Source: Nostoc punctiforme PCC 73102 (GTDB lineage Bacteria; Cyanobacteriota; Cyanobacteriia; Cyanobacteriales; Nostocaceae). From it: DNA of 32,000 bases. Positions 1 to 29,711 of this stretch are shown piece after piece (within the stretch, counting starts at the first letter, position 1; the number at the start of each line of letters is the position of its first letter). Under the pieces are notes generated by a model. It was not told the origin of the DNA and did not search any database. It saw only the letters and a program-made list of their open reading frames with translations. The position numbers were made by a program, and so were the translations under genes. The stretch covers positions 5,340,001 through 5,372,000 of the forward strand of contig NC_010628.1 of NCBI RefSeq assembly GCF_000020025.1, given 5' to 3'.

Positions 1-2
1 TC

Positions 3-122
3 AACGCAGTGCGTAAAGATGAAGATTGGCAAAGCATTGCCAGAACTCCCCTATTAGTCGTTGTTGCTGTTACTATTGCTGATGTACTCACACGCTTTGT
101 AATTGGCGATAGCAGTAAATAA
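3..122 (+). CDS. 3' end of a membrane protein gene (partial, runs off the window); possibly the pilin/VirB2-position gene
   Basis: The frame is open from the window edge to TAA at 120-122. It translates to NAVRKDEDWQSIARTPLLVVVAVTIADVLTRFVIGDSSK*, which contains one hydrophobic helix. It lies directly upstream of the VirB3-like/VirB4-like pair, where virB2/trbC sits in virB/trb operons. The function is a positional inference only. Confidence 0.35.
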   Translation, partial: NAVRKDEDWQSIARTPLLVVVAVTIADVLTRFVIGDSSK

Positions 123-136
123 TTCAGATATTTCAA

Positions 137-514
137 ATGTCTCAAGAGCGGGAACAAGAATTTCGTCCAGTTAATCAGGTTCTGGGAAGCCAACCTTCTC
201 TAGGGCCCATCCCTGCCGATCAAATTCTTCCTTGGACGGTGATTGCCTTAGCCTCCTACTTTATTATCAATGGAATTTTTGGGGGTCTTTTCCAAGAAGA
301 ATTTCAAAAATGGTTGTGGACAGTACTAATGACTGGTTGGGGAATAGGAACCTGGTGGATTTTAACTGGTGGTAGGAGTTGGAGTTTTTTAAGTAAATTT
401 ATTGGCGTTCCCGCTTGGACAAGAGGCTTTGCTCGTTATCAAAGCTTACTGGAAGTTAACCATGAAGCAAAAAATCGGAAAACAAAGCGTCGGCATCGCC
501 GGAAACGAAAGTAG
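137..514 (+). CDS. small two-TM inner-membrane protein, VirB3/TrbD-like by size, topology and position
   Basis: This is a 125-aa ORF with two hydrophobic helices (ILPWTVIALASYFIINGIFGGLF and WLWTVLMTGWGIGTWWILTG). It lies immediately 5' of, and overlaps, the VirB4-like ATPase gene. The C-terminal tail is polybasic (NRKTKRRHRRKRK). No sequence-level family match could be verified by eye. Confidence 0.55.
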   Translation: MSQEREQEFRPVNQVLGSQPSLGPIPADQILPWTVIALASYFIINGIFGGLFQEEFQKWLWTVLMTGWGIGTWWILTGGRSWSFLSKFIGVPAWTRGFARYQSLLEVNHEAKNRKTKRRHRRKRK

Positions 515-3209
515 ATTAACACCATTTGAAGATGCCTTACACTTGGCGACAATGTTACGTGTCGCTATGAATGGACGCGATATTGGTGCATACCTTTTGA
601 CAAAAGGCACTCAAAAAGATCGGTTTTGCTTTGTTTTTGGTTTTGACTGTAAGGGAATTCATACTACCTTAAGACCCGAACAAATCGATACACTTTTTAA
701 TAACATTGAAGCTGGATTAAAAGATATCCCTAGCGGTGAAAGAATGACACTGCACTTGGGATCTTTTAGCTCCGACAAAGAGCGCCAAAAAGAATTAGCA
801 TCACTAATCAAAAATGCGCCATCACGAGATATCAAATACTTGTTGATGGCAGAAAGAGCCAGAGTCAAAGAACTGACTGTTTCTGGTGTTCGCAAGCCAA
901 AATTTTTGCGGATTTATGTCACCTACACCATTGAATCTAACTCACAACATGCAGATGATTGGATAGAGAAGCTTTTAGTCAAAGCTGAATCATGGTGGTT
1001 GAAATTCAAAGGTGAACTCTCAGAAGTAGAAAATCAGCGCATCGAAACCCTAATCACAAATGCTTACAAGCAGGGTTTTCTGCGTTGGGAACAGATTTTA
1101 TCTAATCAAATGGGATTGGATATCAAACCTTTGACAGCAGATGAACTCTGGAAAGAGGTCTGGAAAAGGTTTAATGATACAGAGGCAATAGAGATTCCTC
1201 AGTTGATGACATTAGATGAACAAGGACTGCACGAGCAAGTCAATTCAGATTTAGCTAGTACTAAATTGCTCATAGACAATATCCACGGCACAACTTTGCT
1301 GATGGAGTCTAGCGTACCTTGTGCCGATCGCCGTTGGGTTAATGTTAACAATCGTTATATTGGCGCACTGTCATTTCTCGAAAAACCCGGAGGTTGGCCA
1401 AATAAATCTTCCCAACTGCGATATTTATGGGAATTATTGGCCAGAGAAAGAGTAGCAGATACAGAGATTTTTTGTGAGTTGACTGCCGCAAATCCAGCAA
1501 TGGTAAAAACGACTTTGCAACGAGTGCTGAAGCAGTCAAACATGACGACAATCATGGCTCAAGAAAAAAGTAAAACCATTGATGTTAACGCTCAATTGAA
1601 GCTGAAGAAATCGGTAGCGGCGCAAGAACAATTATTTGAAGGTGCAGTCCCGATTTATACGAGTATTGCTATTTTGGTACACCGTCCAACTGTTGAAAAA
1701 TTAGATGAGGCAATAAGGTATATTGAAAACTGTTTTCAACGTCCAGCAAGGGTAATTAGGGAAACTGAATATGCCTGGAAAATTTGGCTGCAAACTCTAC
1801 CAATAGTTTGGGAAGGTTTATTAGCAACACCTTTTAACCGTCGTCAGCTATATTTAACCAGTGAAGTTCCTGGATTAATGCCTTTAGTTTTAACTAAACG
1901 GGGTGACAAAGAAGGCTTTGAATTGATTGCCGAAGAAGGCGGAACACCGGTACATTTAGATTTGTTTAATCAACACAAAAACTTAGCTTTGTTTGCAACA
2001 ACTCGTGCTGGTAAATCGGTATTAGTATCAGGGATTTTAACTCAAGCTTTGGCGCATGGCATTCCTGTAGTGGCATTAGATTTCCCTAAACCTGATGGCA
2101 CATCAACTTTCACAGACTATACAGAGTTTATGGAGGGGAATGGAGCCTATTTTGATATTTCCAAACAATCGAATAACTTATTTGAACAGCCAGATTTGCG
2201 ATCGCTAGAACCAGAACAACAGCGCGATCGCTTTAACGATTATACTGCCTTCCTAGAATCAGCTTTAATGACAATGGTTTTAGGATCGTCCACTGAAAGT
2301 CAAATTTTATCGCAAACAGTGCGATCGCTACTCAACCTAGCTTTAGAAGCCTTCTTTACAGATGAGGGCATCAAAGAGCGATATCGACAGGCGATGATGG
2401 GAGGATTCGGCACTCTGGCTTGGCAGAAAACCCCTACCTTGAAAGATTTTCTCTATTTCTGCTCGCCAGAATACTTACAGCTAGATTCTTTAAGTGGCAG
2501 AGTTGAAGACGCTCTCAGCCAAATTCAGCTACGCTTGCGGTTTTGGCTCTCTAGCCGTGTGGGACAAGCTATTTCTGCACCATCTAGCTTTCCTACTGAT
2601 GCACAACTGTTAGTTTTTGCTCTGAGAAACTTATCAGATAGTGAAGATGCAGCCGTATTATCATTGAGTGCCTATTCAGCAGCATTACGACGGGCATTAA
2701 GTAGTCCAGCTTCTATATTCTTTATTGACGAGGCACCAATTTTATTTGAATTCGAGCAAATCTCTGACTTAGTTGGCAGAATTTGTGCGAACGGTGCTAA
2801 AGCCGGTATCAGAGTCATCTTATCGGGACAAGATCCTGATACCATTGCCAAATCTAAAGCTGCATCTAAAATTTTGCAAAACTTGACAACACGACTGATT
2901 GGACGGATTCAACCAGTTGCAGTGGATAGTTTTGCAGATATCTTAAAATATCCCCGCAACATTATTTCTCGTAATGCTTCAGAAAGCTTTTTTCCCCGCA
3001 AAGAAGGTGTCTATAGCCAATGGCTATTAGATGATAACGGTATTTATACATTCTGTCGTTATTATCCAGGTTATGAACAATTGGCAGCAGTTGCTAATAA
3101 TCCCTCTGAACAAACTGCCCGGAGTAAAATGATGCAACTCCACAACAATAAATATGAAGCAATTTCTGCCTTTGCACGTCAGTTAGTGGCTACTTTACGT
3201 AGTAGTTAA
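462..3209 (+). CDS. VirB4/TrbE/TraC-family type IV secretion ATPase
   Basis: The long ORF gives 935 aa from TTG 402 or about 915 aa from ATG 462. Walker A is FATTRAGKSVLVSG, with GKS at nt 2010-2018. Walker B is IFFIDEAPILF, with DE at nt 2727-2732, followed by GIRVILSGQDPDTI. The size and the N-terminal non-ATPase domain are typical of VirB4. The start is uncertain: ATG 462 has GGAAG upstream and overlaps the previous ORF by 53 nt, and ATG 552 is the alternative. Confidence 0.85.
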   Translation: MKQKIGKQSVGIAGNESRLTPFEDALHLATMLRVAMNGRDIGAYLLTKGTQKDRFCFVFGFDCKGIHTTLRPEQIDTLFNNIEAGLKDIPSGERMTLHLGSFSSDKERQKELASLIKNAPSRDIKYLLMAERARVKELTVSGVRKPKFLRIYVTYTIESNSQHADDWIEKLLVKAESWWLKFKGELSEVENQRIETLITNAYKQGFLRWEQILSNQMGLDIKPLTADELWKEVWKRFNDTEAIEIPQLMTLDEQGLHEQVNSDLASTKLLIDNIHGTTLLMESSVPCADRRWVNVNNRYIGALSFLEKPGGWPNKSSQLRYLWELLARERVADTEIFCELTAANPAMVKTTLQRVLKQSNMTTIMAQEKSKTIDVNAQLKLKKSVAAQEQLFEGAVPIYTSIAILVHRPTVEKLDEAIRYIENCFQRPARVIRETEYAWKIWLQTLPIVWEGLLATPFNRRQLYLTSEVPGLMPLVLTKRGDKEGFELIAEEGGTPVHLDLFNQHKNLALFATTRAGKSVLVSGILTQALAHGIPVVALDFPKPDGTSTFTDYTEFMEGNGAYFDISKQSNNLFEQPDLRSLEPEQQRDRFNDYTAFLESALMTMVLGSSTESQILSQTVRSLLNLALEAFFTDEGIKERYRQAMMGGFGTLAWQKTPTLKDFLYFCSPEYLQLDSLSGRVEDALSQIQLRLRFWLSSRVGQAISAPSSFPTDAQLLVFALRNLSDSEDAAVLSLSAYSAALRRALSSPASIFFIDEAPILFEFEQISDLVGRICANGAKAGIRVILSGQDPDTIAKSKAASKILQNLTTRLIGRIQPVAVDSFADILKYPRNIISRNASESFFPRKEGVYSQWLLDDNGIYTFCRYYPGYEQLAAVANNPSEQTARSKMMQLHNNKYEAISAFARQLVATLRSS
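2198..2328. repeat. three HIP1 octamers (GCGATCGC) within 131 bp, inside the ATPase gene
   Basis: Exact GCGATCGC occurs at 2198-2205, 2224-2231 and 2321-2328. Further exact copies are at 5565, 8152, 8596, 10833, 27058, 27739 and 30006, among many others across the window. Confidence 0.95.
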
Positions 3210-3453
3210 TCGTGGAGTTGATCGTGAGTAAAGACCTGATTATGGGGCGAACATTTCGGTCGCCCGTAAGTAAAGGCGGACAAGATATTCACCCCAAAGA
3301 TATAGTTCCACATTTAACTTGGTTAGGGCGCTCATAGTGCCCAACCCACAAGAATTTAATTTTGTTTTGTAACTTAGTAATTTCTTTCTTGTAAATCCCT
3401 AAATCATACTTACAGCAAACTTAATTGCGTCTACCTTTTTCAGGTACATAAAT

Positions 3454-4269
3454 ATGAGAAAAACTACCATTTTTACTTTGACATTGCTATCTTTAGCAAT
3501 CCTACCAGCAATGGCACAAATTCAGACGGGCGGATTAGGCCAGGTTTGGACTGATTTTCAATCATATTCCACAGATTTGCAAAACTACCTTCAATATAAT
3601 CTGAGCGACAACTTAAAGCCTGTAGAAGTACAGAGTCAAAATGCTCTGAGTAATGCCAGAGGAGAATTGAATATACCTAACCCTGTTATGGCTGGACAAA
3701 GAGTTCGTGATAATTTGATTCTCTACTCTTCTAATTCTGACTCCAGAGCGAGTCGCTTTGAGAATAATTCAGCAGTGCGGGGAAATTTAGTTAGTAATGA
3801 ACTCAGTCGGGTAATTACCCGTGGAGTAGCGGTAGGGATTCTTGGCGAAAAGGGACAAATTCGGACAAAATCAAAGTTAGAAAATACTGAAGAAAGTCTG
3901 AAAAATATTGCGGGATTTGCCGATACAGCCGAGCAAAAGAGCCAAGATTTGCTAAATAAAATTCCCATTCCCAGTATTGATATATCTAAACTTGATCCAG
4001 CCACTGCGGTTTTAGCACAATTATTAAATGTCAATCAATCACAAACTATAAAAATCCAAGAGGAACAATCGAAAATTGTAGGTGAAACATTTGCTCAGAC
4101 AATACAAATGAATCAGTCTTTGCAGTACTCTAATTTAAACTTGGCAAATATTTCCCAGCAGTCAGAAGAAGCAAATCGCGCTCGGAGAGTAGAAACATCT
4201 ACCGAAGCCGCACGACTTTTGCGGGCGACTTCTCAACTAGATTTGTTTGGCAGAAAGCTTAATAAGTGA
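3454..4269 (+). CDS. secreted protein of unknown function, in the VirB5/TrbJ position
   Basis: The 271-aa ORF has a clear Sec signal peptide (MRKTTIFTLTLLSLAILPAMA/QIQ). The remainder is hydrophilic, rich in N/Q/S/E and probably helical. It lies between the VirB4-like and VirB6-like genes, as trbJ/virB5 does. Assignment is by position and size only. Confidence 0.7.
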   Translation: MRKTTIFTLTLLSLAILPAMAQIQTGGLGQVWTDFQSYSTDLQNYLQYNLSDNLKPVEVQSQNALSNARGELNIPNPVMAGQRVRDNLILYSSNSDSRASRFENNSAVRGNLVSNELSRVITRGVAVGILGEKGQIRTKSKLENTEESLKNIAGFADTAEQKSQDLLNKIPIPSIDISKLDPATAVLAQLLNVNQSQTIKIQEEQSKIVGETFAQTIQMNQSLQYSNLNLANISQQSEEANRARRVETSTEAARLLRATSQLDLFGRKLNK

Positions 4270-4342
4270 AATTTAAAATTGAGAAATCTCAATTCTTCTG
4301 ATTCTAGAAAATACTTTTTTAAAAGACAGTTAGTTAACTAAC

Positions 4343-5392
4343 ATGCAATTTGCTATTCAACAAATTTTTGCCCAAGTAGGCATCGATGAGATTCTCGATA
4401 ATGGTGCCGCAACCTCTCAAAGTATTGCCGAAGGTTGGGACAAACAATGGCTGGATTTATTGCAAAATAACACCAGTAATAACTTGTATGGAGCGCTGAC
4501 AAATCTGGGTATTTTTTTTGCGGTAGGAACCCTGTTGTTTTTCATGATACAATTCCTCAAAGACTTACTATCCTACGAATATACTCGTCCCATATCAGCT
4601 TTAATTTGGCCTTTTATTGTAGTGATCCTCTTAAGTAATTCAGCCAATGGAAGTATTCTTTCTAATCTGACACTAGGAGTGCGGAATTTTCTAAACACTG
4701 TGAATCAGCAAGTAGTGGTATCAGCAGACGCAGACAAAATGTACCAGCAAGCACTGAATATGAGTGTTGCCGAAGAAGTAGCTGGCTCTTTGCTGCGTCC
4801 TTGTCAATCACTGACTGGCGAACAACAAAGTCAATGCTTTGTCAAAGCTGCCGAAAAAGTTAACATTCTTTGGCAAAAATATAGAGATATATATGGAAAT
4901 AAAAATTGGATAATTAGACTACAAACTAAGGTAGATAATATTAGATATGGCACTGGCATTGTATCAGAAACCTCATTTAATTCTTTGTTAGGTTCTACAG
5001 TCCAAACGAGTATCAAAAACTTTTTAGTTTCGTTACAATATGCCTTCCAAAATTTGATAGAAGCTACGATGTTGCTGATAGCATCTTTAGGACCAATAGC
5101 TGTAGGTGGGTCTTTACTACCTGTAGCGGGGAAACCAATCTTCGCATGGCTGACTGGATTTTTATCTATTGGAATCGCCAAGATTTCATTCAATATTATT
5201 GCGGTGCTAACTGCCGCAGTTATTGTCAATGGGCCAGGTCAAGATGCTAATGTTGATCCAGATTTAATGTGGTTCATTATTTTTCTAGGGATTTTAGCAC
5301 CACTTTTATCCTTACTTGTAGCTGCGGCTGGCGGTTTTGCAGTCTTCAGTGCTATCAGCAATACGGCTTCTTTAGTGAAGGAGAGGATATAA
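4343..5392 (+). CDS. polytopic inner-membrane protein, VirB6/TrbL-like topology
   Basis: The 349-aa ORF has about 5 hydrophobic helices. Two are N-terminal (LGIFFAVGTLLFFMIQFL and ISALIWPFIVVILLS). A soluble loop of about 130 aa follows, then three C-terminal helices (MLLIASLGPIAVGG, FAWLTGFLSIGIAKISFNIIAVLTAAVIV and LMWFIIFLGILAPLLSLLVAAAGGFAVF). The position matches trbL/virB6. Confidence 0.7.
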   Translation: MQFAIQQIFAQVGIDEILDNGAATSQSIAEGWDKQWLDLLQNNTSNNLYGALTNLGIFFAVGTLLFFMIQFLKDLLSYEYTRPISALIWPFIVVILLSNSANGSILSNLTLGVRNFLNTVNQQVVVSADADKMYQQALNMSVAEEVAGSLLRPCQSLTGEQQSQCFVKAAEKVNILWQKYRDIYGNKNWIIRLQTKVDNIRYGTGIVSETSFNSLLGSTVQTSIKNFLVSLQYAFQNLIEATMLLIASLGPIAVGGSLLPVAGKPIFAWLTGFLSIGIAKISFNIIAVLTAAVIVNGPGQDANVDPDLMWFIIFLGILAPLLSLLVAAAGGFAVFSAISNTASLVKERI

Positions 5393-5510
5393 GTAACTCA
5401 AAATTTTCAAAGAATAATCTATCTAAGTATTGGCTATTTTCCTGACTGCTGACTATACGCAAATCATCATATATAATAGCTGAAGTTTTTTTGCAGGAGG
5501 AGATAAATAA

Positions 5511-6335
5511 ATGGTGCGTCTACTAGAAAAAAGACAAAGAACGGGAAGTGTTTTGACAATTTTTGCGATCGCGTCCTTCAGTTTACATGTATTAGTTTTA
5601 CTTTTATTCATATTCCAAGGGCTAAATATTCGCCAACTCAGTCTGAGAAAACCTCCCAACTTTGTGCAATTAATAGATGGTAAACCAGTAGGCAATATTG
5701 ATGATTTAGCAAGAGAACCAGAAGCAATTCGCCGATTCATCAGCAAAACGATGATATCAATGTTTACCTGGTCGGGAACCTTACCACCACAAAATATCGA
5801 AGAAGTTGCAAATCCTAAATCAGATTTAGGAATTCTAATTAGAACATCCCAAGGTAGTAGCCAAAAAATTAGTACTAGCACTTGGATAGCAAGTTTTGCC
5901 TTATCAGAAGACTTTCGCAAAGGTTTCTTAAGCACAGTTGCAGAAATGACCCCGCCAGAAGTTTTCTCTGAAAATCCTAACCAAGTGATGACATCACAAT
6001 TAATTATTAAGCGAGTTTATCCCCCAAAACAAATTGCACCAGGTAAGTGGCGAGTGGGGATGGTAGCCGACTTAATTCAAAAAAACCGAGTTGGTGGTGA
6101 AAAACTCGTCACTCCTTTTAACAAAGATTTCCTTGTCCGTGCAGTAGATTATTTTGGTAATCCCCAAGCCGACAATGGTACAGACTTGCAAAAAGCAATT
6201 TATAGTGTCCGCACTGATAAACTAGAAATTTATGAAATTCGTAATTTATGTTTGCTAGATGGGTATAACAACCTTAACGAAGATAATTTAAAGCAATGTG
6301 GGGCTAGACAAACCTCTGATAGCTTTATAAAATAA
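5511..6335 (+). CDS. bitopic membrane protein, VirB8/TrbF-like (paralog 1)
   Basis: The 274-aa ORF has a short basic N-terminus, one TM (VLTIFAIASFSLHVLVLLLFIF) and a soluble domain of about 230 aa. It shares the motifs LHVL.LLL.IF.G, PEAIRRF..TM....TWS, G.W.V.M, FNK..LVRA.D and LEIY with the next ORF. Confidence 0.7.
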   Translation: MVRLLEKRQRTGSVLTIFAIASFSLHVLVLLLFIFQGLNIRQLSLRKPPNFVQLIDGKPVGNIDDLAREPEAIRRFISKTMISMFTWSGTLPPQNIEEVANPKSDLGILIRTSQGSSQKISTSTWIASFALSEDFRKGFLSTVAEMTPPEVFSENPNQVMTSQLIIKRVYPPKQIAPGKWRVGMVADLIQKNRVGGEKLVTPFNKDFLVRAVDYFGNPQADNGTDLQKAIYSVRTDKLEIYEIRNLCLLDGYNNLNEDNLKQCGARQTSDSFIK

Positions 6336-6385
6336 GAGATTTTTAATTCACTGAGTCATAGTTCAATTTATATAATCAATTATTA

Positions 6386-7090
6386 ATGCAAATACTTAAA
6401 CCAGAAAACAAGAGAAATAGCCCACTACCACTGTTGGCAGTAGGAACATTTGGTTTACATGTATTAACCTTGCTTTTACTAATATTTCATGGGTCTATGT
6501 TACAACAGTTAAGTCGGCAACTTTCACCTCAAAGTTTGGTACAGCTTGTTGATGGTCGCACTATAACAGTAGACGCTCAACCAAATTTAGAGCGACAGCC
6601 AGAGGCTATTCGGCGCTTTGTGGGTGAAACGATGAGCTTAATGCTTACCTGGTCACAACAACAGCCACCTACACAAGTCTGGGAAATTACCTCTCAACTT
6701 GTAGCTGATAATTTTAAACAAAAACTTAAGTCAGAAATTACTAATTTAAATCCAGATAGTCAATTTGAAAATGTTAGTAGAGGAACTGAGAATGTATTAG
6801 TCATCCAAAAAATTTCTCAACCGAAAGAAATCAGTAAGGGAAACTGGAAAGTAGAGATGTTTGCCAATCAATTAATTTTTAGCGGTTATGATAGGTTGGG
6901 AAAATCAGTTTCATTTAATAAACAAATTTTAGTTAGAGCAATAGATGAACCAGCAACTTCACTACCAAATGCGCCACTACCGACGCACTTCGCAGCTTAC
7001 CGCCTTGGTGAAGCCAGATTAGAAATTTATAATGTCTGTGAAATCCAAGATAAAAATTGTTCTGGAAATCCCAACCAAGCTTTACCATGA
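6386..7090 (+). CDS. bitopic membrane protein, VirB8/TrbF-like (paralog 2)
   Basis: The 234-aa ORF has the same architecture and motifs as 5511-6335, but lacks an internal segment of about 35 aa. Its TGA stop (7088-7090) overlaps the next gene's ATG (7087-7089) as ATGA. Confidence 0.7.
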   Translation: MQILKPENKRNSPLPLLAVGTFGLHVLTLLLLIFHGSMLQQLSRQLSPQSLVQLVDGRTITVDAQPNLERQPEAIRRFVGETMSLMLTWSQQQPPTQVWEITSQLVADNFKQKLKSEITNLNPDSQFENVSRGTENVLVIQKISQPKEISKGNWKVEMFANQLIFSGYDRLGKSVSFNKQILVRAIDEPATSLPNAPLPTHFAAYRLGEARLEIYNVCEIQDKNCSGNPNQALP

Positions 7091-8688
7091 CTCGATACTC
7101 AACTCCTGCCCAAACGCCTCCTCAAAATGGATTTGCTCTAACCACCGACGATCGCCAACCAGAAGTAGAATCTTTTGATTGGGAATCACGGATCTCAAAG
7201 TTGGTTGGTTTTGAAGAAGAATCTTCTTCTGGCGATCTTCAAGGATCGGAAGACTCTGCAATGCCGCAAGAGTCGCTTTCTCAACCACAAGAAGTTCAGA
7301 CTAAGCCACCCTTATCATCTAATCCCTTTGCAAAATTAGGCTTGGTAGGGGCTGCTACTTTAGCGATCGTTTTGGTGGGTGGTGTGTTTTTGTCCCAGTT
7401 GATGGGTACCAGCAATCAGAAGCCAAAAAATATTGTTTCCCCACCGGTGCGTGAGCAACCAATTAATGAATCGACCTCTCAACAGCTAGCAGTCGAAGTA
7501 GATACTCTGAAAACGAAATTAGCCCTGACTGAACAAGCACAGTTGGTAAGAGCCGCCCAACAACAACTCAGAATTGCCAAATCAACACCTAAAGTAGCCC
7601 TACGAGAACCATCAGTTTCTTCCAGAGGTACACAGAAAGTGATCCCAACACCCCCACCAATAGCTTACGCACCTCGAACAGTGACAGTTGAGCGCATTGT
7701 TAAAGTACCTGCTTCTCAACTGCCATCACCCCAACTACCAGTTGTGAAGCCAAACACTCAACCCGTAGTTAATATTGCTCCACCAGCTCCACCAAACCCA
7801 TTTGAAGAGTGGGCAAAATTATCAAAGTTAGGTAGCTACGGTCAAGTAAATGCCAACGATCAACCTAATAACACGGTAGCTGCTTCTGAACCTCCAAACA
7901 ATCCACAGCCGCAGCAACAGACACAAACCCCCAATCCTGAGCAAACTCCACAACAGCAAACTCCTGCTCCTCTAGTCAGTCAAGCGCAACAGCAGGGACA
8001 GAAATCTGTAGCAGTAGGAAGTAGTGCTAAAGCTGTTTTGGCGACGGCAATATTTGGGGAAACTACCAAGTCAGGCGGCGGTGGTGATACAGGTGAACAG
8101 AAAAACGTATTTGTGATCCGATTAAAAGAACCGCTAAAATCTACCGATGGTGCGATCGCTCTACCTGCAAATACCGAATTTCTAACTGAAATTAGCTCCC
8201 TCTCCGAACAAGGTCTTTTGCAGATGAACGTAGTCAAAGTTGTCTCGCAAAATAACGGCAACCCGATAGAACGAAGCTTACCCAACAATGCAATTATTAT
8301 TCGCGCTAGCCAAGGTAAACCTTTAATCGCAAATAAATTTCCCAGTCAAGGTTCGTCCATAGCATCGATGGATTTAGGACTATTCGTCTTGGGAGGTATT
8401 GGGAAAGCAGCAGAGTTAATAAATCGTAGTGATACTGAACTCCAACCACTTACTTCACAAACTACCGTTGACGGCAACACCAGTAGCAGTACAACTCTTA
8501 CTACTGTCACTAAAAACAGACGCGATATCGCAGCCGGGGTTGTAGAAGGTGGTTTGAACTCTGTAGTCCCCCAAATTGCCCAACGTAATCAACAGGCGAT
8601 CGCCCAAATGTCCCAGCAAACGAATATTTGGTTTTTGCCAGCCGGCACAAATATTGAAATATACGTTAATCAAGTAACTCAGTTTTAA
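7087..8688 (+). CDS. VirB10/TrbI-like protein with a long Pro/Gln-rich spacer
   Basis: ATG 7087 is chosen because of the ATGA coupling; the ORF track starts at 7057. The N-terminus is acidic and cytoplasmic, followed by a single TM (LGLVGAATLAIVLVGGVFLSQLM). An extended P/Q-rich region follows (PTPPPIAYAP...PPAPPNP...PQPQQQTQTPNPEQTPQQQTPAP). The C-terminal domain resembles the TrbI/VirB10 pattern (VGSSAKAVLATAIFGET...IALPANTEFLTEISS..GLLQMNVVKVV). Confidence 0.7.
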   Translation: MTRYSTPAQTPPQNGFALTTDDRQPEVESFDWESRISKLVGFEEESSSGDLQGSEDSAMPQESLSQPQEVQTKPPLSSNPFAKLGLVGAATLAIVLVGGVFLSQLMGTSNQKPKNIVSPPVREQPINESTSQQLAVEVDTLKTKLALTEQAQLVRAAQQQLRIAKSTPKVALREPSVSSRGTQKVIPTPPPIAYAPRTVTVERIVKVPASQLPSPQLPVVKPNTQPVVNIAPPAPPNPFEEWAKLSKLGSYGQVNANDQPNNTVAASEPPNNPQPQQQTQTPNPEQTPQQQTPAPLVSQAQQQGQKSVAVGSSAKAVLATAIFGETTKSGGGGDTGEQKNVFVIRLKEPLKSTDGAIALPANTEFLTEISSLSEQGLLQMNVVKVVSQNNGNPIERSLPNNAIIIRASQGKPLIANKFPSQGSSIASMDLGLFVLGGIGKAAELINRSDTELQPLTSQTTVDGNTSSSTTLTTVTKNRRDIAAGVVEGGLNSVVPQIAQRNQQAIAQMSQQTNIWFLPAGTNIEIYVNQVTQF

Positions 8689-8801
8689 GAGGTAGGATTT
8701 ATACAAATTTTAAATTTGGATTGGGTAAGGTAATTAAGTAATTAGTTTTCTTGCCATCTTCCCTATTTTCACCTATTCAATTAATCTCCTAATTTGCAAC
8801 C

Positions 8802-9374
8802 ATGACAAAGAATACTAACTTGTCAGGAAATAGCTCACGCAATTCTTATTTCCTACCTCTAGCTTCCTTAATTTTCTCGGTTGCTATGTTATTGTTGGTA
8901 GGACGTGCTGGTGCTAATAATGCTGTTCTGCGTTCCATCTTTTCCTGTCAAGCGCAGGGTTTAGGTGGACTAATACCTACAATCAAGATTTGGTATCAAC
9001 AAGGAACAAACTTAAGTTTTATTCCATCTGGAGAAGTAATTAAAAAAGTTTGGTTAAACGATCCATCACAGGTAACTCTAGATTTTGATGGACCTGTATG
9101 TATGCAGTTTGGTCAAGAAGCTAATACTAATACAGGAGATTGTAAAAACTCCGCAGCAAATGTAATTCAACTCAGACGAATTAAAAAGCTAAACATTCCT
9201 GGACTTCCTCCTACTAACAATACACTTTTAACAGTTGTTACCGAAGCGCAAGGTAAAAATAAGTTATATACTTTTCGAGTGATATATGGAACAGATAATC
9301 CTGAATATCACACTTTAGCAATTTTTTCCGATCCTTCTGGTCAAGAAGGAGCTTGTGCGAAAGTTCCACAATAA
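8802..9374 (+). CDS. small exported protein, possibly a single VirB9/TrbG-like N-terminal-type domain
   Basis: The 190-aa ORF has an N-terminal hydrophobic signal or anchor (YFLPLASLIFSVAMLLLVGRAGA). The sequence looks beta-rich. The segment NTLLTVVTEAQGKNKLYTFRVIYG resembles the VirB9/CagX motif tNL.vvTd..r.Y.F.L. It is the last gene of the co-directional block. The family call is tentative. Confidence 0.5.
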   Translation: MTKNTNLSGNSSRNSYFLPLASLIFSVAMLLLVGRAGANNAVLRSIFSCQAQGLGGLIPTIKIWYQQGTNLSFIPSGEVIKKVWLNDPSQVTLDFDGPVCMQFGQEANTNTGDCKNSAANVIQLRRIKKLNIPGLPPTNNTLLTVVTEAQGKNKLYTFRVIYGTDNPEYHTLAIFSDPSGQEGACAKVPQ

Positions 9375-9603
9375 ACTTCAAAACTACCACTCAACAACGA
9401 CTGAAGTTTAGCTTTGACAAAAAGCGCTGATGCTACGGATATCTGCATTGTGGCTTTCTTTCTAAAATCATTGCTTTAATGGGCAACTCTAAAAGAAGAG
9501 AGGCTACAAGGGTTAGGTATATTTTTGTTAGCTTTGTATTCTATACAATTAAGAACCGCTACACACCACCATTAGGTAAAGAATCATGAATGGGCAGGGT
9601 TGT

Positions 9604-9710
9604 ATTTCAATCAATCGAAAAGCGCTATAGCAATCCGATAGCGAAGCGGTAGCGAGTCAGACGCTCCTGCGTCGCTAACGCTGCGCTATCGAGCGTCTTT
9701 GATTTCTAAA
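9604..9710. repeat. imperfect palindromic (hairpin-forming) intergenic element
   Basis: The arm GATAGCGAAGCGGTAGCGA (9637-9655) pairs with TCGCTAACGCTGCGCTATC (9672-9690) with 2 mismatches. The outer arms AATCGAAAAGCGCTATAGC and GAGCGTCTTTGATT extend the stem. Confidence 0.6.
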
Positions 9711-9880
9711 CTTATTTGTGTAGGAGGCAATAGGCAAGAAGGCTCTTTGAGTTGTACTGAATTTTTTTAGAAATCAAATATGAGTCCTATATAACTTAAC
9801 CATATTAGCTTAAGTTAAGTTGGCACAATAAAATCAAACTATGTAAATAAAAATGAACTAGGCTAAAACCCTTATAACTA

Positions 9881-9908
9881 TTGCCTTTTGCCTTTTGCCT
9901 TTTGCCTT
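9881..9908. repeat. heptamer tandem repeat (TTGCCTT) x4
   Basis: There are four exact head-to-tail TTGCCTT units. An inverted relative (GGCAATAGGCAAGAAGGC) lies near 9727. Confidence 0.9.
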
Positions 9909-10047
9909 ATCCCAACGACAATTATTTACGCCCAACTTACTTACTCAGGCATTTTAAGCCGACATCTTTATAATTCTTCAGATAAAAATCAAGCACAAAT
10001 TTAAAATCTGTGTAAATATAAAGAAAAGCTTAAGAGGTTACAGACTC

Positions 10048-10287
10048 ATGGTCACTGCGAAAATGATGCAACAGCTTTGGGCTGTAATCGAGTCTACCCA
10101 GGTCAACACCCTGCTCCATTTTGACGATGCTGCTTTAGTTCAATTACTCCTCCAGCAGTTAAAAGCCAAGCAGGTTATTGATGCTCAGGCAGATAGCAGC
10201 CTCAATACTTATATAAAATCTAAACTGCCTCTCATTCGTGATACGGCTGAAGGTCGGTTATCCTTCGGGCAAGGCGGCAATCATTAG
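10048..10287 (+). CDS. hypothetical small soluble protein
   Basis: A 79-aa ORF with an ATG start and a non-repetitive, helical-looking sequence. No recognisable motifs. Confidence 0.4.
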   Translation: MVTAKMMQQLWAVIESTQVNTLLHFDDAALVQLLLQQLKAKQVIDAQADSSLNTYIKSKLPLIRDTAEGRLSFGQGGNH

Positions 10288-10307: not shown

Positions 10308-10607
10308 ATGCCAAGCATACGCTCAGAGTTGAAACAGTTGAATATTATGAATCACTGGCTAGTAATCGCCCTAGTAGCTTATCTAATTGGAGCCGCAATT
10401 GAAGGGGTGAGTACAGCCAGCCAGCTATCTCGTTCAGTACCAGAACTAGCTAAAAGTACACAACAAGCTCACCCTTCAGAGTCTGCCACTGGAACCAATT
10501 CGACTTGGCGAGTTGTGGCCGCTATCGCTTCAGTAAGTATCTGTGGAGCTTTTTTCTGGCCTTGCCGCCTCATCCATCGTTTAATGAAAGGGAACGTTAA
10601 TTCGTAA
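10308..10607 (+). CDS. hypothetical small membrane protein
   Basis: A 99-aa ORF with two hydrophobic helices (WLVIALVAYLIGAAI and VVAAIASVSICGAFFW). The true start may be the internal ATG at 10347 (MNHWLV...). Confidence 0.4.
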   Translation: MPSIRSELKQLNIMNHWLVIALVAYLIGAAIEGVSTASQLSRSVPELAKSTQQAHPSESATGTNSTWRVVAAIASVSICGAFFWPCRLIHRLMKGNVNS

Positions 10608-22169: not shown

Positions 22170-23939
22170 ATGCAATTAAGAGATTCTCTGCGCCGGACAA
22201 AAATTGTCGCTACTATTGGCCCCGCCACTAGTAGTCCTGAAATGCTCAAGGCGATTATTGAAGCGGGAGCCACGACGCTACGGCTAAACTTCTCCCACGG
22301 AACTCATGCCGACCATCAGCGTAGTATTCGCTTAATTCGGCAAACCGCTTTTGAATTAAATCAACCAGTGGCTATTCTCCAAGACTTGCAGGGCCCAAAA
22401 ATTCGCTTGGGGAAGTTTGACAACGGGTCTATAGTTTTGGCAAAAGGCGATCGCTTCACCTTGACAAACCGTCCGGTGGTAGGTACGCAGGAAATTAGCT
22501 GCGTCACCTACGATTATTTAGCCGAAGAAGTCCCAGTTGGTGCAAAAATCCTCCTCGATGATGGACGAGTAGAAATGGTCGTGGAGGAGATTAACCGAGA
22601 CAAAGGTGATTTGCATTGTCGCATTACCGTGCCTGGTAAACTTTCTAACAACAAAGGTGTAAACTTTCCCGGCGTTTACCTGTCAATTAAGGCAATGACC
22701 GACAAAGACCGAGAGGATCTGATGTTTGGTCTAGATCAAGGTGTAGATTGGGTGGCACTTTCCTTTGTCCGCAATCCGCAGGACATGATCGAAATTAAAG
22801 AACTAATTTCTAGTACAGGCAAGCAAGTGCCAGTGGTTGCCAAAATTGAAAAACATGAAGCCATTGAACAAATGGAGGCAGTTCTGGCTTTGTGTGATGG
22901 CGTGATGGTTGCCAGAGGTGATTTAGGCGTAGAATTGCCCGCAGAAGATGTTCCGGTACTCCAAAAGCGGCTAATTGCTACAGCAAATCGCTTAGGGATT
23001 CCCATCATCACCGCCACCCAAATGTTAGACAGCATGGTGAGCAATCCCCGTCCCACTCGCGCGGAAGTGTCAGATGTGGCAAACGCGATTTTAGATGGCA
23101 CAGACGCGGTGATGCTCTCCAATGAAACCGCCGTCGGTAGCTTCCCTGTAGAAGCAGTAGCGACAATGGCGCGGATTGCCGAGCGGATGGAGCAGGAAGA
23201 AGCCCAACACTTAAACTTGCGTTCCGTGAGAGATTCCCGGCGCTCCATTCCTAATGCGATTAGTCAAGCTGTAGGTCAAATTGCCGAACAACTAGGTGCA
23301 GCTGCAATTATGACCTTAACGCAAACTGGGGCAACTGCTCGCAATGTCTCTAAGTTCCGTCCCAATACACCGATTTTGGCTGTTACCCCCCATGTGAATG
23401 TAGCGCGGCAGCTACAAATGGTGTGGGGAGTAAAACCGCTATTGGTGCTAGGATTACCTTCCACTGGTCAGACCTTCCAAGCTGCGATTAATGTGGCTCA
23501 GGAGTTGAAGTTACTGTCGGAGGGAGATTTAGTAGTAATGACTGCTGGCACACTCCAGGGAATTTCCGGCTCCACAGATTTGATTAAGGTTGAGGTGGTG
23601 ACGGCGGTATTAGGTCACGGAATTGGATTAGGACAAGGTTTAGTGAGTGGTCGCGCACGGGTAGCTAATACTGGCATGGATGTTAGTAACTTTAATCCTG
23701 GAGACATATTAGTTGCACCGCGCACTAGTGCCGATTTTGTCGAGGCTATTCGTAAATCTGCGGGGATTATTACGGAAGAGGAAAGTCTCACAAGTCATGC
23801 TGCCGTTATTGGCTTACGTCTCGGCGTGCCAGTGATTGTTGGCGTGAAGCAGGCAACGCAGGTGATTCGCGATGGAGCGATTATAACGCTGGATCTGCAA
23901 CGGGGTTTGATTTACTCTGGGGCAGTGAGAACGCCTTAG
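22170..23939 (+). CDS. pyk: pyruvate kinase with a C-terminal PEP-utilising-enzyme mobile domain
   Basis: The 589-aa ORF shows TKIVATIGPA, RLNFSHG, MVARGDLGVE and ATQML.SM. The C-terminal extension carries TSHAAVIGLRLGVPVIVG, the phosphohistidine swivel-domain motif. Confidence 0.95.
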   Translation: MQLRDSLRRTKIVATIGPATSSPEMLKAIIEAGATTLRLNFSHGTHADHQRSIRLIRQTAFELNQPVAILQDLQGPKIRLGKFDNGSIVLAKGDRFTLTNRPVVGTQEISCVTYDYLAEEVPVGAKILLDDGRVEMVVEEINRDKGDLHCRITVPGKLSNNKGVNFPGVYLSIKAMTDKDREDLMFGLDQGVDWVALSFVRNPQDMIEIKELISSTGKQVPVVAKIEKHEAIEQMEAVLALCDGVMVARGDLGVELPAEDVPVLQKRLIATANRLGIPIITATQMLDSMVSNPRPTRAEVSDVANAILDGTDAVMLSNETAVGSFPVEAVATMARIAERMEQEEAQHLNLRSVRDSRRSIPNAISQAVGQIAEQLGAAAIMTLTQTGATARNVSKFRPNTPILAVTPHVNVARQLQMVWGVKPLLVLGLPSTGQTFQAAINVAQELKLLSEGDLVVMTAGTLQGISGSTDLIKVEVVTAVLGHGIGLGQGLVSGRARVANTGMDVSNFNPGDILVAPRTSADFVEAIRKSAGIITEEESLTSHAAVIGLRLGVPVIVGVKQATQVIRDGAIITLDLQRGLIYSGAVRTP

Positions 23940-27365: not shown

Positions 27366-27641
27366 ATGCACGTTATTAGTCGCAAAATTCTACGAGAATT
27401 TTGTGAGGCACATGCAGATATAAAGGAAGCACTTTATGATTGGTATAGGATAGCAACTAAAGCTGAATGGAAAAATCTGCTTGAAGTTCAGGCTATTTAT
27501 CCAAAAGCAGAAGCAGTTGGTAACTTCACTGTGTTTAATATTAAAGGAAACAGTTACCGTTTGATTACTGATATTGTTTACGAAACTCAAAGAATCTATA
27601 TTAAATATGTCCTGAATCACGCTGAATATGATAAGGATTAA
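27366..27641 (+). CDS. higB: HigB-family type II toxin (RelE-fold mRNA interferase)
   Basis: The 91-aa sequence MHVISRKILREFCEAHADIKEAL..W......W.N......YP.A..VGNFTVFNIKGNSYRLITDIVYETQRIYIKYVLNHAEYDK is closely collinear with E. coli HigB (MHLITQKALKD...YVFNVGGNELRVV...CYIREVMTHKEYD). Confidence 0.9.
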   Translation: MHVISRKILREFCEAHADIKEALYDWYRIATKAEWKNLLEVQAIYPKAEAVGNFTVFNIKGNSYRLITDIVYETQRIYIKYVLNHAEYDKD

Positions 27642-27648
27642 TGGAAAA

Positions 27649-28044
27649 ATGACCCGTACTTTTAATCCAGAATCTTATGGTAAATTGCTAGCCGAGTATC
27701 AGCCAAAAATCATTACCACGAATGCAGAAAACGAACAAGCGATCGCACTCGCATTAACCTTAGAACATCGTCTTAATCGGACATCAGAAGAAGAGATGCT
27801 GTTACAACTGTTGGTAACATTAATTGAGCAGTTTGAAGAAACCCATTACCCAATTCTCAACGGTACACCCAATTCGATGTTAGTGCATCTGATGGACGCA
27901 CGTGATATGACGACTGAAGCATTAGCAGAGGTACTCGGATCTTTGGAAGTTGCTTTGCAAATTGTGAATGGCGGCACTATTAGTAAAACTCAAGCAGAAG
28001 CGTTGGCGGACTATTTTAATGTAAATGTCAGTTTATTTACCTAG
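27649..28044 (+). CDS. higA: HigA-family antitoxin with a C-terminal HTH
   Basis: The 131-aa protein from ATG 27649 starts 7 nt after the higB stop; the ORF track starts at 27628, overlapping higB. The C-terminus ISKTQAEALADYFNVNVSLF resembles the E. coli HigA HTH tail (LTLEHAKKLATRFGISPALF). Toxin-first gene order is typical of hig loci. Confidence 0.85.
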   Translation: MTRTFNPESYGKLLAEYQPKIITTNAENEQAIALALTLEHRLNRTSEEEMLLQLLVTLIEQFEETHYPILNGTPNSMLVHLMDARDMTTEALAEVLGSLEVALQIVNGGTISKTQAEALADYFNVNVSLFT

Positions 28045-28223: not shown

Positions 28224-29711
28224 CTATGTACCTGTATTAAAAATCCTATGTCCTAACCATCCCAAACCCAAGCTTAAACTAGAAGTACTAGCTAAAATTA
28301 GAAAAGTATGAAATTTGCTAAAAGATTCTCGTAATTTATCTTCAGCCCTAATCACAGTCACAAGCACAGCAAAAATCATAGCCGAAGCCACAGCCCCAGC
28401 CACAGCCACAGCCCCAGCCCCAGCCACAGCCACAGCCACAACCACAGCCACAACCACAGCCACAGCCACAGCCGCAGCCGCAGCCACAGCCGCAGCCCCA
28501 GCCCCAACCGTAGCCACAGCCGCAGCCACAGCCACAGCCACAGCCACAGCCCCAGCCACAGCCCCAGCCATAGCTCCAGCTCCAGCCACAGCCGAAGCCA
28601 CAGCCGAAGCCACAGCCCAAGCCCCAGCCCAAGCCCAAGTCCCAGCCCAAGCCACGGCCACAGCCCCAGCCACAGCTACAGCCCAAATTATGTACAGAGC
28701 GTTAGACGCGGCTAACAAGTAGCCTATCAATAGGTAGCTTAACAATACACCAATCAACCAGCCCCAAGGAATAACTCTAGGTGATTTAGTAGTTGGTTTA
28801 ACTCGAAGAATTGGCTTTGAGGGTAGCTTGACTTTGGAAGAAACAACTTCTTTTCTATAAACAGGACTAACAGGTAGTAGAGGCTGTTGCTTTTGGTGCT
28901 CTAACATTGCTAACCATACCTGCATTGACTGAGGGCGGTCTTTTGCCTCTAGCGCCATACCCTTAAGAATTGCTTGATTTAATTGATCGCTGATGCTTGG
29001 ATTAATTTGTTTAGGTGGAATTAGGAAAGTATTGTCTAGCTTGCGAGCCAGAGAAGTTGTAGGGCGTTGACCTGTCACCGCATAATAGAGTGTGGCAACC
29101 AGACAGTAAACATCGACCGTTGGATCTCGACTACCTCTGCTCATCTGCTCATAAGGCGCAAATGCCTCATTACCTGCAATACCTTTTGAACTCAAAGTTT
29201 TAGGCACGAGTTCTTTAGCAATGCCAAAGTCAATCAGAACCGCTTTGCCATTACTCCGCAGCATGATATTTCCGGGATGGGCATCTCTGTGTACTAAACC
29301 TGCCTGATGCACCACCACTAAAGCTTCCCCAATCTGGCGGATACAGGGTACAATCTCTGCTTCTGGTAACGCACCTCTACGTTTTACTGCCTCAAACAAA
29401 TTTTCTCCCGGTACAAAATCCATCACTAAGCAGTGGATAGTACCTTCCTTAAACAAGTCAATTACTCCCACAATATGAGGATGAGGGTCTTGAGACAAGC
29501 GTGCTAGTGTTCGCCCTTCTTGAATAAATCGGTCTATATACTTGCCATATTCTGGGTCAGGGCTGAGATATTCATTGGGTGTCTTGATGACAACTGTCCG
29601 GTTTAGCTCAACATGCAATGCCTTATAAGTAATCCCAAATCCCCCCTGTCCAAGGACTTTATCAATTACATATTTGCCACCTTGTAATCGTTGTCCAGTT
29701 GTCCAAGGCAT
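28224..29711 (-). CDS. Hanks-type Ser/Thr protein kinase with a C-terminal hydrophobic (Ala-X)n repeat tract
   Basis: The kinase subdomains are the G-loop LGQGGFGITY, VVIKT, catalytic loop VHRDAHPGNIM (nt 29268-29291), DFG (LIDFGIAKE) and FAPYE. After about 300 aa come a TM helix and then about 102 residues of A/V/G/W-rich repeat. The sequence ends ...MIFAVLVTVIRAEDKLRESFSKF... Confidence 0.85.
   Translation of the reverse strand: MPWTTGQRLQGGKYVIDKVLGQGGFGITYKALHVELNRTVVIKTPNEYLSPDPEYGKYIDRFIQEGRTLARLSQDPHPHIVGVIDLFKEGTIHCLVMDFVPGENLFEAVKRRGALPEAEIVPCIRQIGEALVVVHQAGLVHRDAHPGNIMLRSNGKAVLIDFGIAKELVPKTLSSKGIAGNEAFAPYEQMSRGSRDPTVDVYCLVATLYYAVTGQRPTTSLARKLDNTFLIPPKQINPSISDQLNQAILKGMALEAKDRPQSMQVWLAMLEHQKQQPLLPVSPVYRKEVVSSKVKLPSKPILRVKPTTKSPRVIPWGWLIGVLLSYLLIGYLLAASNALYIIWAVAVAGAVAVAWAGTWAWAGAWAVASAVASAVAGAGAMAGAVAGAVAVAVAVAAAVATVGAGAAAVAAAAAVAVAVVVAVVVAVAVAGAGAVAVAGAVASAMIFAVLVTVIRAEDKLRESFSKFHTFLILASTSSLSLGLGWLGHRIFNTGT
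28381..28686. repeat. 51 consecutive in-register hexanucleotide units (GCCACA and variants)
   Basis: Read by eye, the units are GCCGAA GCCACA GCCCCA GCCACA ... GCTACA GCCCAA, with no indel breaking the 6-nt register. The variants are GCCCCA, GCCGCA, ACCACA, GCCGAA, GCCCAA, GCCATA, GCTCCA, ACCGTA, GTCCCA and GCCACG. On the minus strand the units read as Ala-X dipeptides. Confidence 0.95.

Follow-up and report, generated by a model that had tools for sequence, protein, structure and literature searches.

The DNA analyzed here, referred to as the window, is a stretch of 32,000 nucleotides from Nostoc punctiforme PCC 73102 (contig NC_010628.1, positions 5,340,001 to 5,372,000), and its positions 1-9374 carry nine genes that all run in the same direction on the plus strand, the first of them being cut by the window edge. 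A preliminary description made from the sequence had proposed that they encode a VirB/Trb-like type IV secretion system (T4SS), possibly of the cyanobacterial mating-pair-formation class (MPF_C). A check of the open reading frames (ORFs) recovered all nine where they had been placed, and a motif and hydropathy scan found the Walker motifs, topologies and signal peptide as described. Coordinates below are those of the whole window, while the complete first gene and the 10 kb upstream of the cluster were read in a 99%-identical locus of Nostoc sp. UCD121 (L001). The genes, with the evidence for each assignment, are as follows.

..122, + strand: pilin-like gene (alr7204 family), 3′ end only; complete (206 aa) in L001 at 9041-9661
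137..514, + strand: small membrane protein in the VirB3 position (alr7205 family), 125 aa; homology, position
462..3209, + strand: VirB4-family ATPase of the MPF_C clade, 915 aa, orthologue of all0469; homology, profiles
3454..4269, + strand: secreted hydrophilic protein in the VirB5 position (alr7207 family), 271 aa; homology, signal peptide
4343..5392, + strand: VirB6-like polytopic inner-membrane protein (alr7208 family), 349 aa; homology, hydropathy
5511..6335, + strand: VirB8-like bitopic protein, copy 1 (alr7209 family), 274 aa; homology, AlphaFold2/Foldseek
6386..7090, + strand: VirB8-like bitopic protein, copy 2, 234 aa, paralogue of copy 1; homology
7087..8688, + strand: TrbI/VirB10-like protein (alr7210 family), 533 aa; homology, PF03743
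8802..9374, + strand: exported beta-rich protein in the VirB9 position (alr7211 family), 190 aa, orthologue of all0463; homology

The ATG at 462 agrees with the 915-aa length of the ATPase homologues and gives a 53-nt overlap with the 3′ end of the 125-aa gene; similarly, the start ATG of the 533-aa gene overlaps the stop codon of the 234-aa gene. The identical nine-gene order was found in 75-80 of 80 loci from Nostoc species, those short of the full set lying on short contigs, as well as in the Anabaena PCC 7120 group and in Chlorogloeopsis. Such a recurring order is not a chance arrangement. Comparison with Pfam and NCBIfam gave family matches for the ATPase and the 533-aa protein, the other seven products having none, and such sparse matches, taken alone, would leave the earlier T4SS interpretation open. 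The same databases revealed neither a second P-loop (VirB11) nor a transglycosylase domain (VirB1) among the cluster ORFs. The missing VirB11 had already been pointed out in the preliminary description, and the model MPF_C locus on plasmid pCC7120alpha likewise shows none.

MPF_C was defined on the VirB4 phylogeny and described, with eight accessory profiles specific to the class, from the Nostoc sp. PCC 7120 plasmid pCC7120alpha, and its authors stated that nothing was known experimentally about it (PMC4027160). The VirB4 on which the class was defined is alr7206 (PMC4027160, PMC8600333), and Popin et al. give alr7206 as the MPF_C VirB4 and alr7213 as its VirD4. HHsearch comparisons by Guglielmini 2014 linked MPF_C proteins to VirB3, VirB6, VirB8, VirB9 and VirB10 and none to VirB2 (PMC4027160). 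A blastp comparison of the window products with the proteins of the pCC7120alpha locus gave the following identities.

206 aa with alr7204: 47% over the C-terminal 100 aa, E 3e-29
125 aa with alr7205: 39%, E 1.5e-23
915 aa with alr7206: 53% over the full length (913 residues)
271 aa with alr7207: 21%, E 4e-6
349 aa with alr7208: 34%, E 6e-49
274 aa with alr7209: 33%, E 9e-28
234 aa with alr7209: 22%, E 5e-16
533 aa with alr7210 (TrbI): 27%, E 4e-23
190 aa with alr7211: 46%, E 8e-29

Seven of the eight MPF_C accessory families, which we take to be alr7204, alr7205, alr7207, alr7208, alr7209, alr7210, alr7211 and alr7212, are thus present and collinear with alr7204-alr7211, at blastp E values from 4e-6 to 6e-49; alr7212 is the exception. 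The MPF_C identity suspected in the preliminary description is borne out by the match of the ATPase to alr7206 and by this row of neighbours, in which alr7209 is represented twice. Since the series is collinear with the plasmid, the position of the TrbI-like gene before the small beta-rich gene, previously taken as a departure from the canonical order, is the ordinary MPF_C order. It had also been stated that only the ATPase was recognizable; Pfam and NCBIfam recognize little, but against the model plasmid the accessory proteins are clearly recognizable.

Both nucleotide-binding motifs of the ATPase are intact, with ATTRAGKS (Walker A) at residue 512 and IFFIDE (Walker B) at residue 752. In NCBIfam, it gave long collinear matches to the TraC-F-type (9e-13) and VirB4_CagE (8e-12) families, far below the curated cut-offs, and in Pfam only AAA_22 and DUF87 (HerA), both sub-threshold; some databases label its homologues 'Helicase HerA central domain'. 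When aligned by hhalign, the family matched VirB4 with 96% probability over 705 columns versus 68% over 424 columns for VirD4, the VirB4 reference profile having been built from seven sequences of proteobacterial and Campylobacter operons. A single-sequence search of the ATPase against PDB sequences returned nothing meaningful. With the family profile, the longest PDB match (231 positions) was to the VirB4 C-terminal domain 4ag5 (E 2.9e-4), while matches to FtsK, HerA and TrwB were confined to the P-loop, those to FtsK and HerA covering about 40 residues. Judged by these comparisons, the ATPase is VirB4-like and not T4CP-like (type IV coupling protein), FtsK-like or HerA-like. Its identity to alr7206 and its position in a distance tree (described below) also place it in the cyanobacterial VirB4 clade by which MPF_C is defined. 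Among 1.8 billion representative sequences, 537 clusters matched the ATPase at E<=1e-3, and among ten of them that were sampled the few bearing an organism name were cyanobacterial.

The 274-, 234-, 533- and 190-aa proteins each possess a single N-terminal membrane segment according to hydropathy analysis. The AlphaFold2 model of the 274-aa protein, calculated from 41 sequences, reached a mean predicted local distance difference test score (pLDDT) of 78.5, with most of the periplasmic domain above 90. Its top match in a Foldseek search of the PDB was Bartonella VirB8 (4lso, E 7.9e-4), followed by IcmL-like, CagV, TraM/DotI, TrwG, TraE and Agrobacterium VirB8 (2cc3) structures, with a probability of 1.00 and TM-scores, normalized to the target, of 0.61-0.68. 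Sequence-profile tests of this family against VirB8 (PDB sequences, hhalign) were negative. The predicted structure, whose best PDB matches are VirB8-family domains, supports a VirB8 fold with an NTF2-like periplasmic domain, in agreement with the VirB8-like reading of the preliminary description. The 234-aa protein is 26% identical to the copy-1 family in blastp and 33% identical to the 274-aa protein in an alignment, so the two bitopic proteins are indeed paralogues. This duplication is limited to the chromosomal lineage and Gloeothece, the plasmid loci examined having one copy.

In the 533-aa protein, a Pro/Gln-rich linker connects an N-terminal membrane segment (residues 84-102) with the TrbI domain at the C-terminus. 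The PF03743 (TrbI) match, at E 1e-5 and 25.9 bits, lies below the 35-bit cut-off and spans residues 318-539 against profile positions 2-184 of 188. The same domain has been recorded in the orthologues from Anabaena and Chlorogloeopsis, and plasmid homologues are annotated as TrbI/VirB10; in hhalign, VirB10 was the top template for the family, with a probability of 10-47%. This near-whole-profile match, together with the domain recorded in orthologues, upholds the TrbI-like reading given earlier. Stand-alone genes with a TrbI/VirB10 domain (all3984, alr7536 and others) also occur on cyanobacterial chromosomes outside any T4SS cluster, two of them having been reported as specific to heterocyst formers (Larsson 2011), which suggests that the domain has been recruited repeatedly.

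The remaining accessory proteins were compared with VirB components using hhalign reference profiles of 6-7 sequences without secondary structure. Such small profiles give low probabilities, so the negative outcomes for VirB2, VirB3 and VirB5 are uninformative. Profiles of the accessory families returned nothing meaningful from all PDB sequences, and when every family member was scanned with Pfam at E<=10, neither TrbC nor VirB3 nor CagX was matched. Members of the 206-aa family begin with a hydrophobic leader, which is long and is followed by an A-x-A|QFF site and then by about 90 aa, in which the alignment shows two hydrophobic helices around an invariant RKDEDWQ loop. No VirB2 signal was obtained for them in the PDB profile search, Pfam or hhalign; by architecture and position, with these profile tests negative, we describe the family as pilin-like, of the VirB2/TrbC type. 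The VirB3 and VirB5 assignments are likewise putative ones by position and topology: the 125-aa family, with a median identity of 97% within Nostoc, had no VirB3 profile match (PDB profile search, hhalign, Pfam), and the 271-aa family had no VirB5 profile match (PDB profile search, hhalign). The 271-aa protein, which carries a signal peptide, is the fastest-evolving member of the cluster, since its median identity within Nostoc is 68% versus 95% for the ATPase and 85-97% for the rest; it shares 42% identity with its Gloeothece homologue, and its ratio of nonsynonymous to synonymous substitutions (dN/dS) is 0.16-0.31. Such divergence would fit a surface-exposed or interaction-facing component. 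In the 349-aa protein, five hydrophobic segments were found, with a large loop between residues 102 and 237, and VirB6 ranked first in hhalign, weakly, at 4-10% probability over 270 columns.

For the 190-aa family, VirB9 was the top hhalign template, at a weak probability of 3.6% and collinear over 148 columns. The alignment pairs TLLTVVT..K.YTF.V with TNL.VvT..R.Y.F.L, the hallmark blocks of the VirB9 N-terminal domain. One family member gave a weak match (0.037) to Pfam DUF4138, the VirB9-related TraN family of Bacteroidetes. No VirB9 match appeared in the PDB profile search, a search with a fused VirB8-like and 190-aa profile returned the VirB8-like family only, and the single-sequence AlphaFold2 model was unusable (pLDDT 41.5); the family alignment contains invariant Cys residues. 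The VirB9-like reading of the preliminary description is thus weakly supported, and the protein probably resembles the VirB9 N-terminal domain. It lacks a C-terminal helical domain of about 85 aa that is found in four of four plasmid versions (L081 22176-22916, L085-L087), one of which showed a weak HTH_29 match within this extra domain. The domain was lost along with alr7212 and the T4CP.

It had been noted before that the 32 kb contain no relaxase, coupling protein or integrase. A tblastn search with pCC7120alpha proteins agreed with this, revealing no homologue of the T4CP (alr7213), alr7212, MobV or the DUF3854 protein in the window, nor in the 80 Nostoc species loci within 10 kb on either side of the cluster. 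The same search detected the T4CP in plasmid loci L081, L086 and L087. No T4CP, relaxase or integrase Pfam domain was present in the flanking genes. On pCC7120alpha, the next genes of the locus encode alr7212 (398 aa, no Pfam family), the T4CP alr7213, a small protein with a relaxase domain and the DUF3854 protein, and a MobV relaxase and an integrase are encoded upstream of the MPF_C genes. On the Calothrix and Anabaena cylindrica plasmids, alr7212 and the T4CP directly follow the alr7211 homologue. Both occur together in three of the four plasmid loci examined, the exception being the Allocoleopsis plasmid (L085), where the stretch, which ends at position 1 of the circular record, contains alr7212 and no alr7213 homologue by tblastn; the 616-aa gene after its alr7211 homologue is annotated as hypothetical.

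The surroundings of the Nostoc cluster are of a housekeeping kind. The 10 kb upstream, read in L001, encode MsrA, a DUF202 protein, a 732-aa protein without assigned function that is read from the complementary strand, CemA, MltA and a small ORF, and this content, together with the tblastn result for the 80 loci, disposes, within 10 kb, of the earlier suggestion that DNA-processing genes lie upstream of the window. Downstream, two small genus-specific ORFs are followed by PlsY, DUF3086, DUF3119, MlaE and further housekeeping genes, as previously described. No tRNA was found in the window and no compositional break, the GC content of the cluster resembling that of its flanks; Rfam, promoter and terminator scans of the cluster gave nothing above chance. 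The MltA lytic transglycosylase gene (L001 5766-7040) is co-directional with the cluster, about 2 kb upstream of it and outside the window, and adjoins cemA. It is present in 61 of 80 Nostoc loci, but in neither the Anabaena 7120 group nor Chlorogloeopsis does it stand beside the cluster; this is probably a housekeeping gene and not a VirB1 analogue. The earlier statement that no lytic transglycosylase is present is thus correct for the cluster ORFs, though one is encoded just beyond the window. The cluster is followed by a 674-nt non-coding gap (9375-10047) with a perfect (TTGCCTT)x4 tandem repeat at 9881-9908 and no Rfam family, terminator or promoter signal above chance. The small ORFs behind it (10048-10287, 79 aa; 10308-10607, 99 aa, with two hydrophobic segments) have no family match, occur downstream in 69 of 80 Nostoc loci and are absent from the Anabaena and Chlorogloeopsis contexts.

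The ATPase is 79-98% identical across Nostocales, in about 25 genera. Its best 120 database clusters are all 82-96% identical to it, many of them on chromosome-sized contigs, and belong, among others, to Nostoc, Anabaena, Trichormus, Nodularia, Fischerella, Chlorogloeopsis, Mastigocladus, Scytonema, Tolypothrix, Hassallia, Umezakia and Anabaenopsis. Within the Anabaena 7120 group, the nine genes (all0463-all0471; L083 9029-18558) sit between a Zip transporter gene and tamB, and in Chlorogloeopsis fritschii between phoX/phoD and lnt-gyrA, so that with Nostoc the intact block is found in three unrelated housekeeping contexts. A neighbor-joining (NJ) distance tree of the ATPases, calculated without bootstrap and with outgroups from class MPF_T, placed the chromosomal proteins in one tight, short-branched clade inside longer-branched MPF_C sequences from plasmids and metagenomes, the outgroups lying far off. 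The groupings within this clade (Fischerella/Nostochopsis/Mastigocladus; Chlorogloeopsis; Scytonema; Tolypothrix/Hassallia/Spirirestis; Nostocaceae) correspond to family-level taxonomy. Close relatives outside Nostocales were found in Gloeothece PCC 7822, on an 880-kb replicon, and Gloeothece PCC 7424, and Gloeothece is sister to the chromosomal clade in the tree. On the PCC 7822 replicon (Cy782201, L082, 8161-16745) the genes are permuted, the accessory genes being followed by the pilin-like, VirB3-like and VirB4 genes, and no homologue of alr7211 (the 190-aa protein) was present in the 30 kb fetched. Two records look like misbinned contigs from metagenomes, namely L013 (CAZZZY010000440.1), which is assigned to an 'uncultured Acetobacteraceae' and bears a 96%-identical Nostoc ATPase, and protein P0079, which is labelled 'Leptolyngbyaceae' and falls inside the Anabaena 7120 group in the tree.

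In comparisons with Komarekiella and the Anabaena 7120 group, each of the nine genes had a dN/dS within 0.06-0.31 (dS up to saturation), the ATPase having the value of 0.06-0.07. By this measure, purifying selection acts on every gene of the cluster. What looked like internal stops in two orthologues, and might have indicated pseudogenes, proved to be slightly shorter C-termini. With respect to literature, the all0464 orthogroup of Larsson et al. 2011 includes Ava_2880, Npun_F4262, N9414_03773 and PCC7424_3181, and Simm et al. 2015 placed all0463 within a 93-gene core set of heterocyst-forming cyanobacteria. The alternative raised in the preliminary description, that of a domesticated machine, gains support from the order-wide vertical conservation and the purifying selection.

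Expression of the Anabaena genes was taken from a supplementary table of Flaherty et al., which gives reads at 0, 6, 12 and 21 h following nitrogen step-down. Reads for all0469 (VirB4) were 33, 28, 194 and 186 at these times, those for all0468 were 9, 15, 61 and 60, and those for all0463 were 1, 3, 8 and 11. A rise of about 2-fold at 12 h and 21 h was seen for all0464, and one of 2.8-fold at 12 h and 1.3-fold at 21 h for all0466, while all0465, all0467, all0470 and all0471 were roughly flat. A FurC box upstream of all0465 has been predicted by others. Expression of the cluster in Anabaena is low (below 7 reads per kilobase per million mapped reads, RPKM). The rise after nitrogen step-down is a lead, not proof, and the role of the cluster may be linked to nitrogen starvation or diazotrophic growth.

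Taken together, these data show that the cluster, as read from sequence, constitutes a complete and chromosomally fixed MPF_C T4SS apparatus that is conserved across an order and shares descent with the conjugative systems of cyanobacterial plasmids. Its lineage has lost the T4CP, the relaxase and alr7212, its alr7211 component has been shortened by the C-terminal domain, and its VirB8 gene has been duplicated. Since then, it has been inherited vertically through Nostocales, with a sister copy in Gloeothece, and has evolved slowly. We therefore favor with good confidence the reading that it is an MPF_C apparatus without relaxase or T4CP that is kept by selection for a host role, and doing a host job is what it most likely does. 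In such an apparatus, VirB4, docked on an inner-membrane platform of VirB3, VirB6 and VirB8, would power the assembly of an envelope-spanning channel of the VirB10/VirB9 type and probably also of a short pilus, with the alr7204-family protein as its pilin and the secreted 271-aa protein at the surface. As there is no coupling protein, relaxase-bound DNA or cytoplasmic effectors could not be recruited by the canonical route, and canonical export of DNA or effectors is unlikely.

The host role might be that of a pilus or adhesion device, of a DNA-uptake device like Helicobacter pylori ComB, or of an exporter of periplasmic cargo like Bordetella pertussis Ptl. We do not rank these options with confidence, and any single specific function is at best an unlikely guess. 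Our first one is contact or uptake by way of a pilus, since every DNA-export part has been lost while the pilin and the surface protein have been kept. More tentative still than the host role as such, and somewhat doubtful as a whole, is a fuller scenario in which the T4CP and relaxase were lost in the Nostocales ancestor or earlier, the apparatus was retained for hundreds of millions of years, it is induced late after nitrogen deprivation, and it serves a host function unlike that of any other known T4SS; candidates for this function would be contact or uptake through a pilus, and export, during diazotrophic growth, across the outer membrane that is continuous along the multicellular filament.

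Several observations weigh against a host role or the evidence for it. The expression data come from one unreplicated RNA-sequencing series with low counts, in which four of nine genes were flat, and no NtcA or DIF motif above chance was found in the Nostoc cluster. The assignments of the pilin, VirB3, VirB5, VirB6 and VirB9 components, being derived from sequence, rest on position, topology and weak profile signals. In the table of Larsson 2011, which is an older one, the all0464 orthogroup is without members from N. azollae, Cylindrospermopsis and Raphidiopsis, and an absence of the cluster from these organisms would make it dispensable for heterocyst formation as such. No experiment on this locus or any MPF_C system was found in the literature. 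Finally, a T4CP and relaxase encoded elsewhere, for instance on the plasmids common in Nostocales, could act in trans.

This last point leads to the main rival, that the chromosomal apparatus is a helper serving conjugation together with the T4CP and relaxase of plasmids or mobilizable elements. Several large plasmids bearing MPF_C genes, relaxases and T4CPs are a common feature of Nostocales; the ATPase has matches in 137 plasmid records, 67 of them typed as conjugative; many cyanobacterial plasmids possess a relaxase only (Popin et al.); and the pilin and the full channel set have been retained in the cluster. However, the T4CPs that we observed adjoin complete MPF_C sets of their own on the plasmids, so a chromosomal duplicate is not needed, and the relaxase-only plasmids lack a T4CP as well (Popin et al.). 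Moreover, an identity of 79-98% with taxonomy-congruent branching across an order is not normal for conjugation helpers, and the disappearance of alr7212 and the alr7211 C-terminal domain along with the T4CP suggests that a whole functional module was lost. We consider such a helper improbable.

The conservation data effectively refute a second explanation, according to which the cluster is the decaying remnant of an integrative conjugative element (ICE) that has shed its mobility genes and is heading for loss. This would account for the missing relaxase, T4CP and integrase, for the absence from some reduced Nostocales genomes in the older orthologue table and for the low expression in Anabaena, but 75-80 of 80 loci, and distant genera too, have the nine frames intact, the Walker motifs are preserved, dN/dS stays at 0.06-0.31 with dS up to saturation, and the borders show no anomaly of composition, tRNA or integrase; decay is therefore very improbable. 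Slightly less credible again is an active conjugative element with its DNA-processing genes just outside the window, an idea that arose because the window begins inside the first gene and its upstream side was invisible to the preliminary description. Within 10 kb on either side it is refuted by the gene content upstream in L001 and by the tblastn search of the 80 loci, and the flanks vary by genus while the cluster is constant. Least credible of all is that the locus is no T4SS but a HerA/FtsK-type ATPase with unrelated membrane proteins, a reading for which the sub-threshold Pfam matches, the HerA labels of some homologues and the fact that the best PDB profile matches by E-value are short P-loop matches to FtsK could be cited, and which is refuted by the very tests proposed in the preliminary description, as the ATPase falls with VirB4/TraC in long collinear matches and at 53% identity to the MPF_C VirB4, and its neighbours show a VirB8 fold and a TrbI domain.

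MPF_C is one of eight recognized T4SS classes and the one without an experimental system. The chromosomal lineage offers a natural experiment, in which MPF_C parts minus the DNA-transfer module have been under selection across a multicellular order, and the cluster is present in two leading cyanobacterial genetic models, Anabaena PCC 7120 (all0463-all0471) and Nostoc punctiforme. Judged from the orthology of all0464 with Npun_F4262, the N. punctiforme genes would be Npun_F4255-F4263. A literature search by locus tag found no mention of all0466-all0469, asl0470, all0471 or their orthologues in N. punctiforme and A. variabilis.

Other genes of the window deserve a brief record. A HigB-family toxin gene and an overlapping gene for a 138-aa partner without Pfam match (27366-28044) are likely a toxin-antitoxin pair, and a separate PIN-domain gene lies at 31348-31767. 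Two adjoining genes for eukaryotic-type Ser/Thr protein kinases occupy 28224-29711 and 29900-30961 on the minus strand. The 176-aa protein encoded at 16934-17464 matches OGFr_N, the N-terminal domain of the opioid growth factor receptor (E 9e-33), which is unusual in a cyanobacterium. At 22170-23939, pyruvate kinase is fused to a phosphoenolpyruvate-utilizing mobile domain, in the most GC-rich kilobase of the window (0.52 versus about 0.40).

Among known systems, the locus is one of the MOBless T4SSs of environmental bacteria (PMC3158045). Guglielmini et al. 2011 mentioned cyanobacterial T4SSs without a nearby relaxase in one sentence and speculated on protein secretion or signalling (PMC3158045). 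The class and its relaxase-less cyanobacterial members are thus on record, whereas our literature search found no description of the composition of this locus, the losses of its lineage, the VirB8 duplication, the vertical inheritance and order-wide conservation, or the expression and its response to nitrogen step-down. The closest known system is the MPF_C system of pCC7120alpha, with which the cluster has the families and order alr7204, alr7205, alr7206, alr7207, alr7208, alr7209, alr7210, alr7211 in common at 21-53% identity and which belongs to the same experimentally uncharacterized class. In contrast to the plasmid, the chromosomal copy has no nearby alr7212, T4CP alr7213, MobV relaxase, DUF3854 protein or integrase, carries two VirB8-like genes instead of one, and has an alr7211 homologue without the C-terminal domain; its lineage is vertical and slow-evolving, whereas the plasmid systems evolve fast.

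Two T4SSs, Ptl of Bordetella pertussis and VirB of Brucella, function with no coupling protein; the cargo that Ptl exports is assembled in the periplasm. Both keep the VirB11 ATPase, which the Nostoc cluster lacks, and no candidate cargo gene is linked to the cluster. ComB of H. pylori is a chromosomal T4SS derivative with parts of the B2, B3, B4, B6, B8, B9 and B10 types and without VirD4, VirB11 or relaxase. The Nostoc cluster keeps known or putative parts of the same types and lacks the same three, a resemblance that concerns gene composition only. ComB, however, derives from MPF_T and has no VirB5-type gene, whereas the Nostoc cluster is of MPF_C and keeps a secreted protein in the VirB5 position. 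Natural transformation in cyanobacteria has been tied to type IV pili and is not known to depend on a T4SS, and DNA uptake by the Nostoc cluster would be a parallel drawn from ComB. A host function of the cluster, if true, would place it next to ComB and Ptl as a further conjugation machine that has been exapted.

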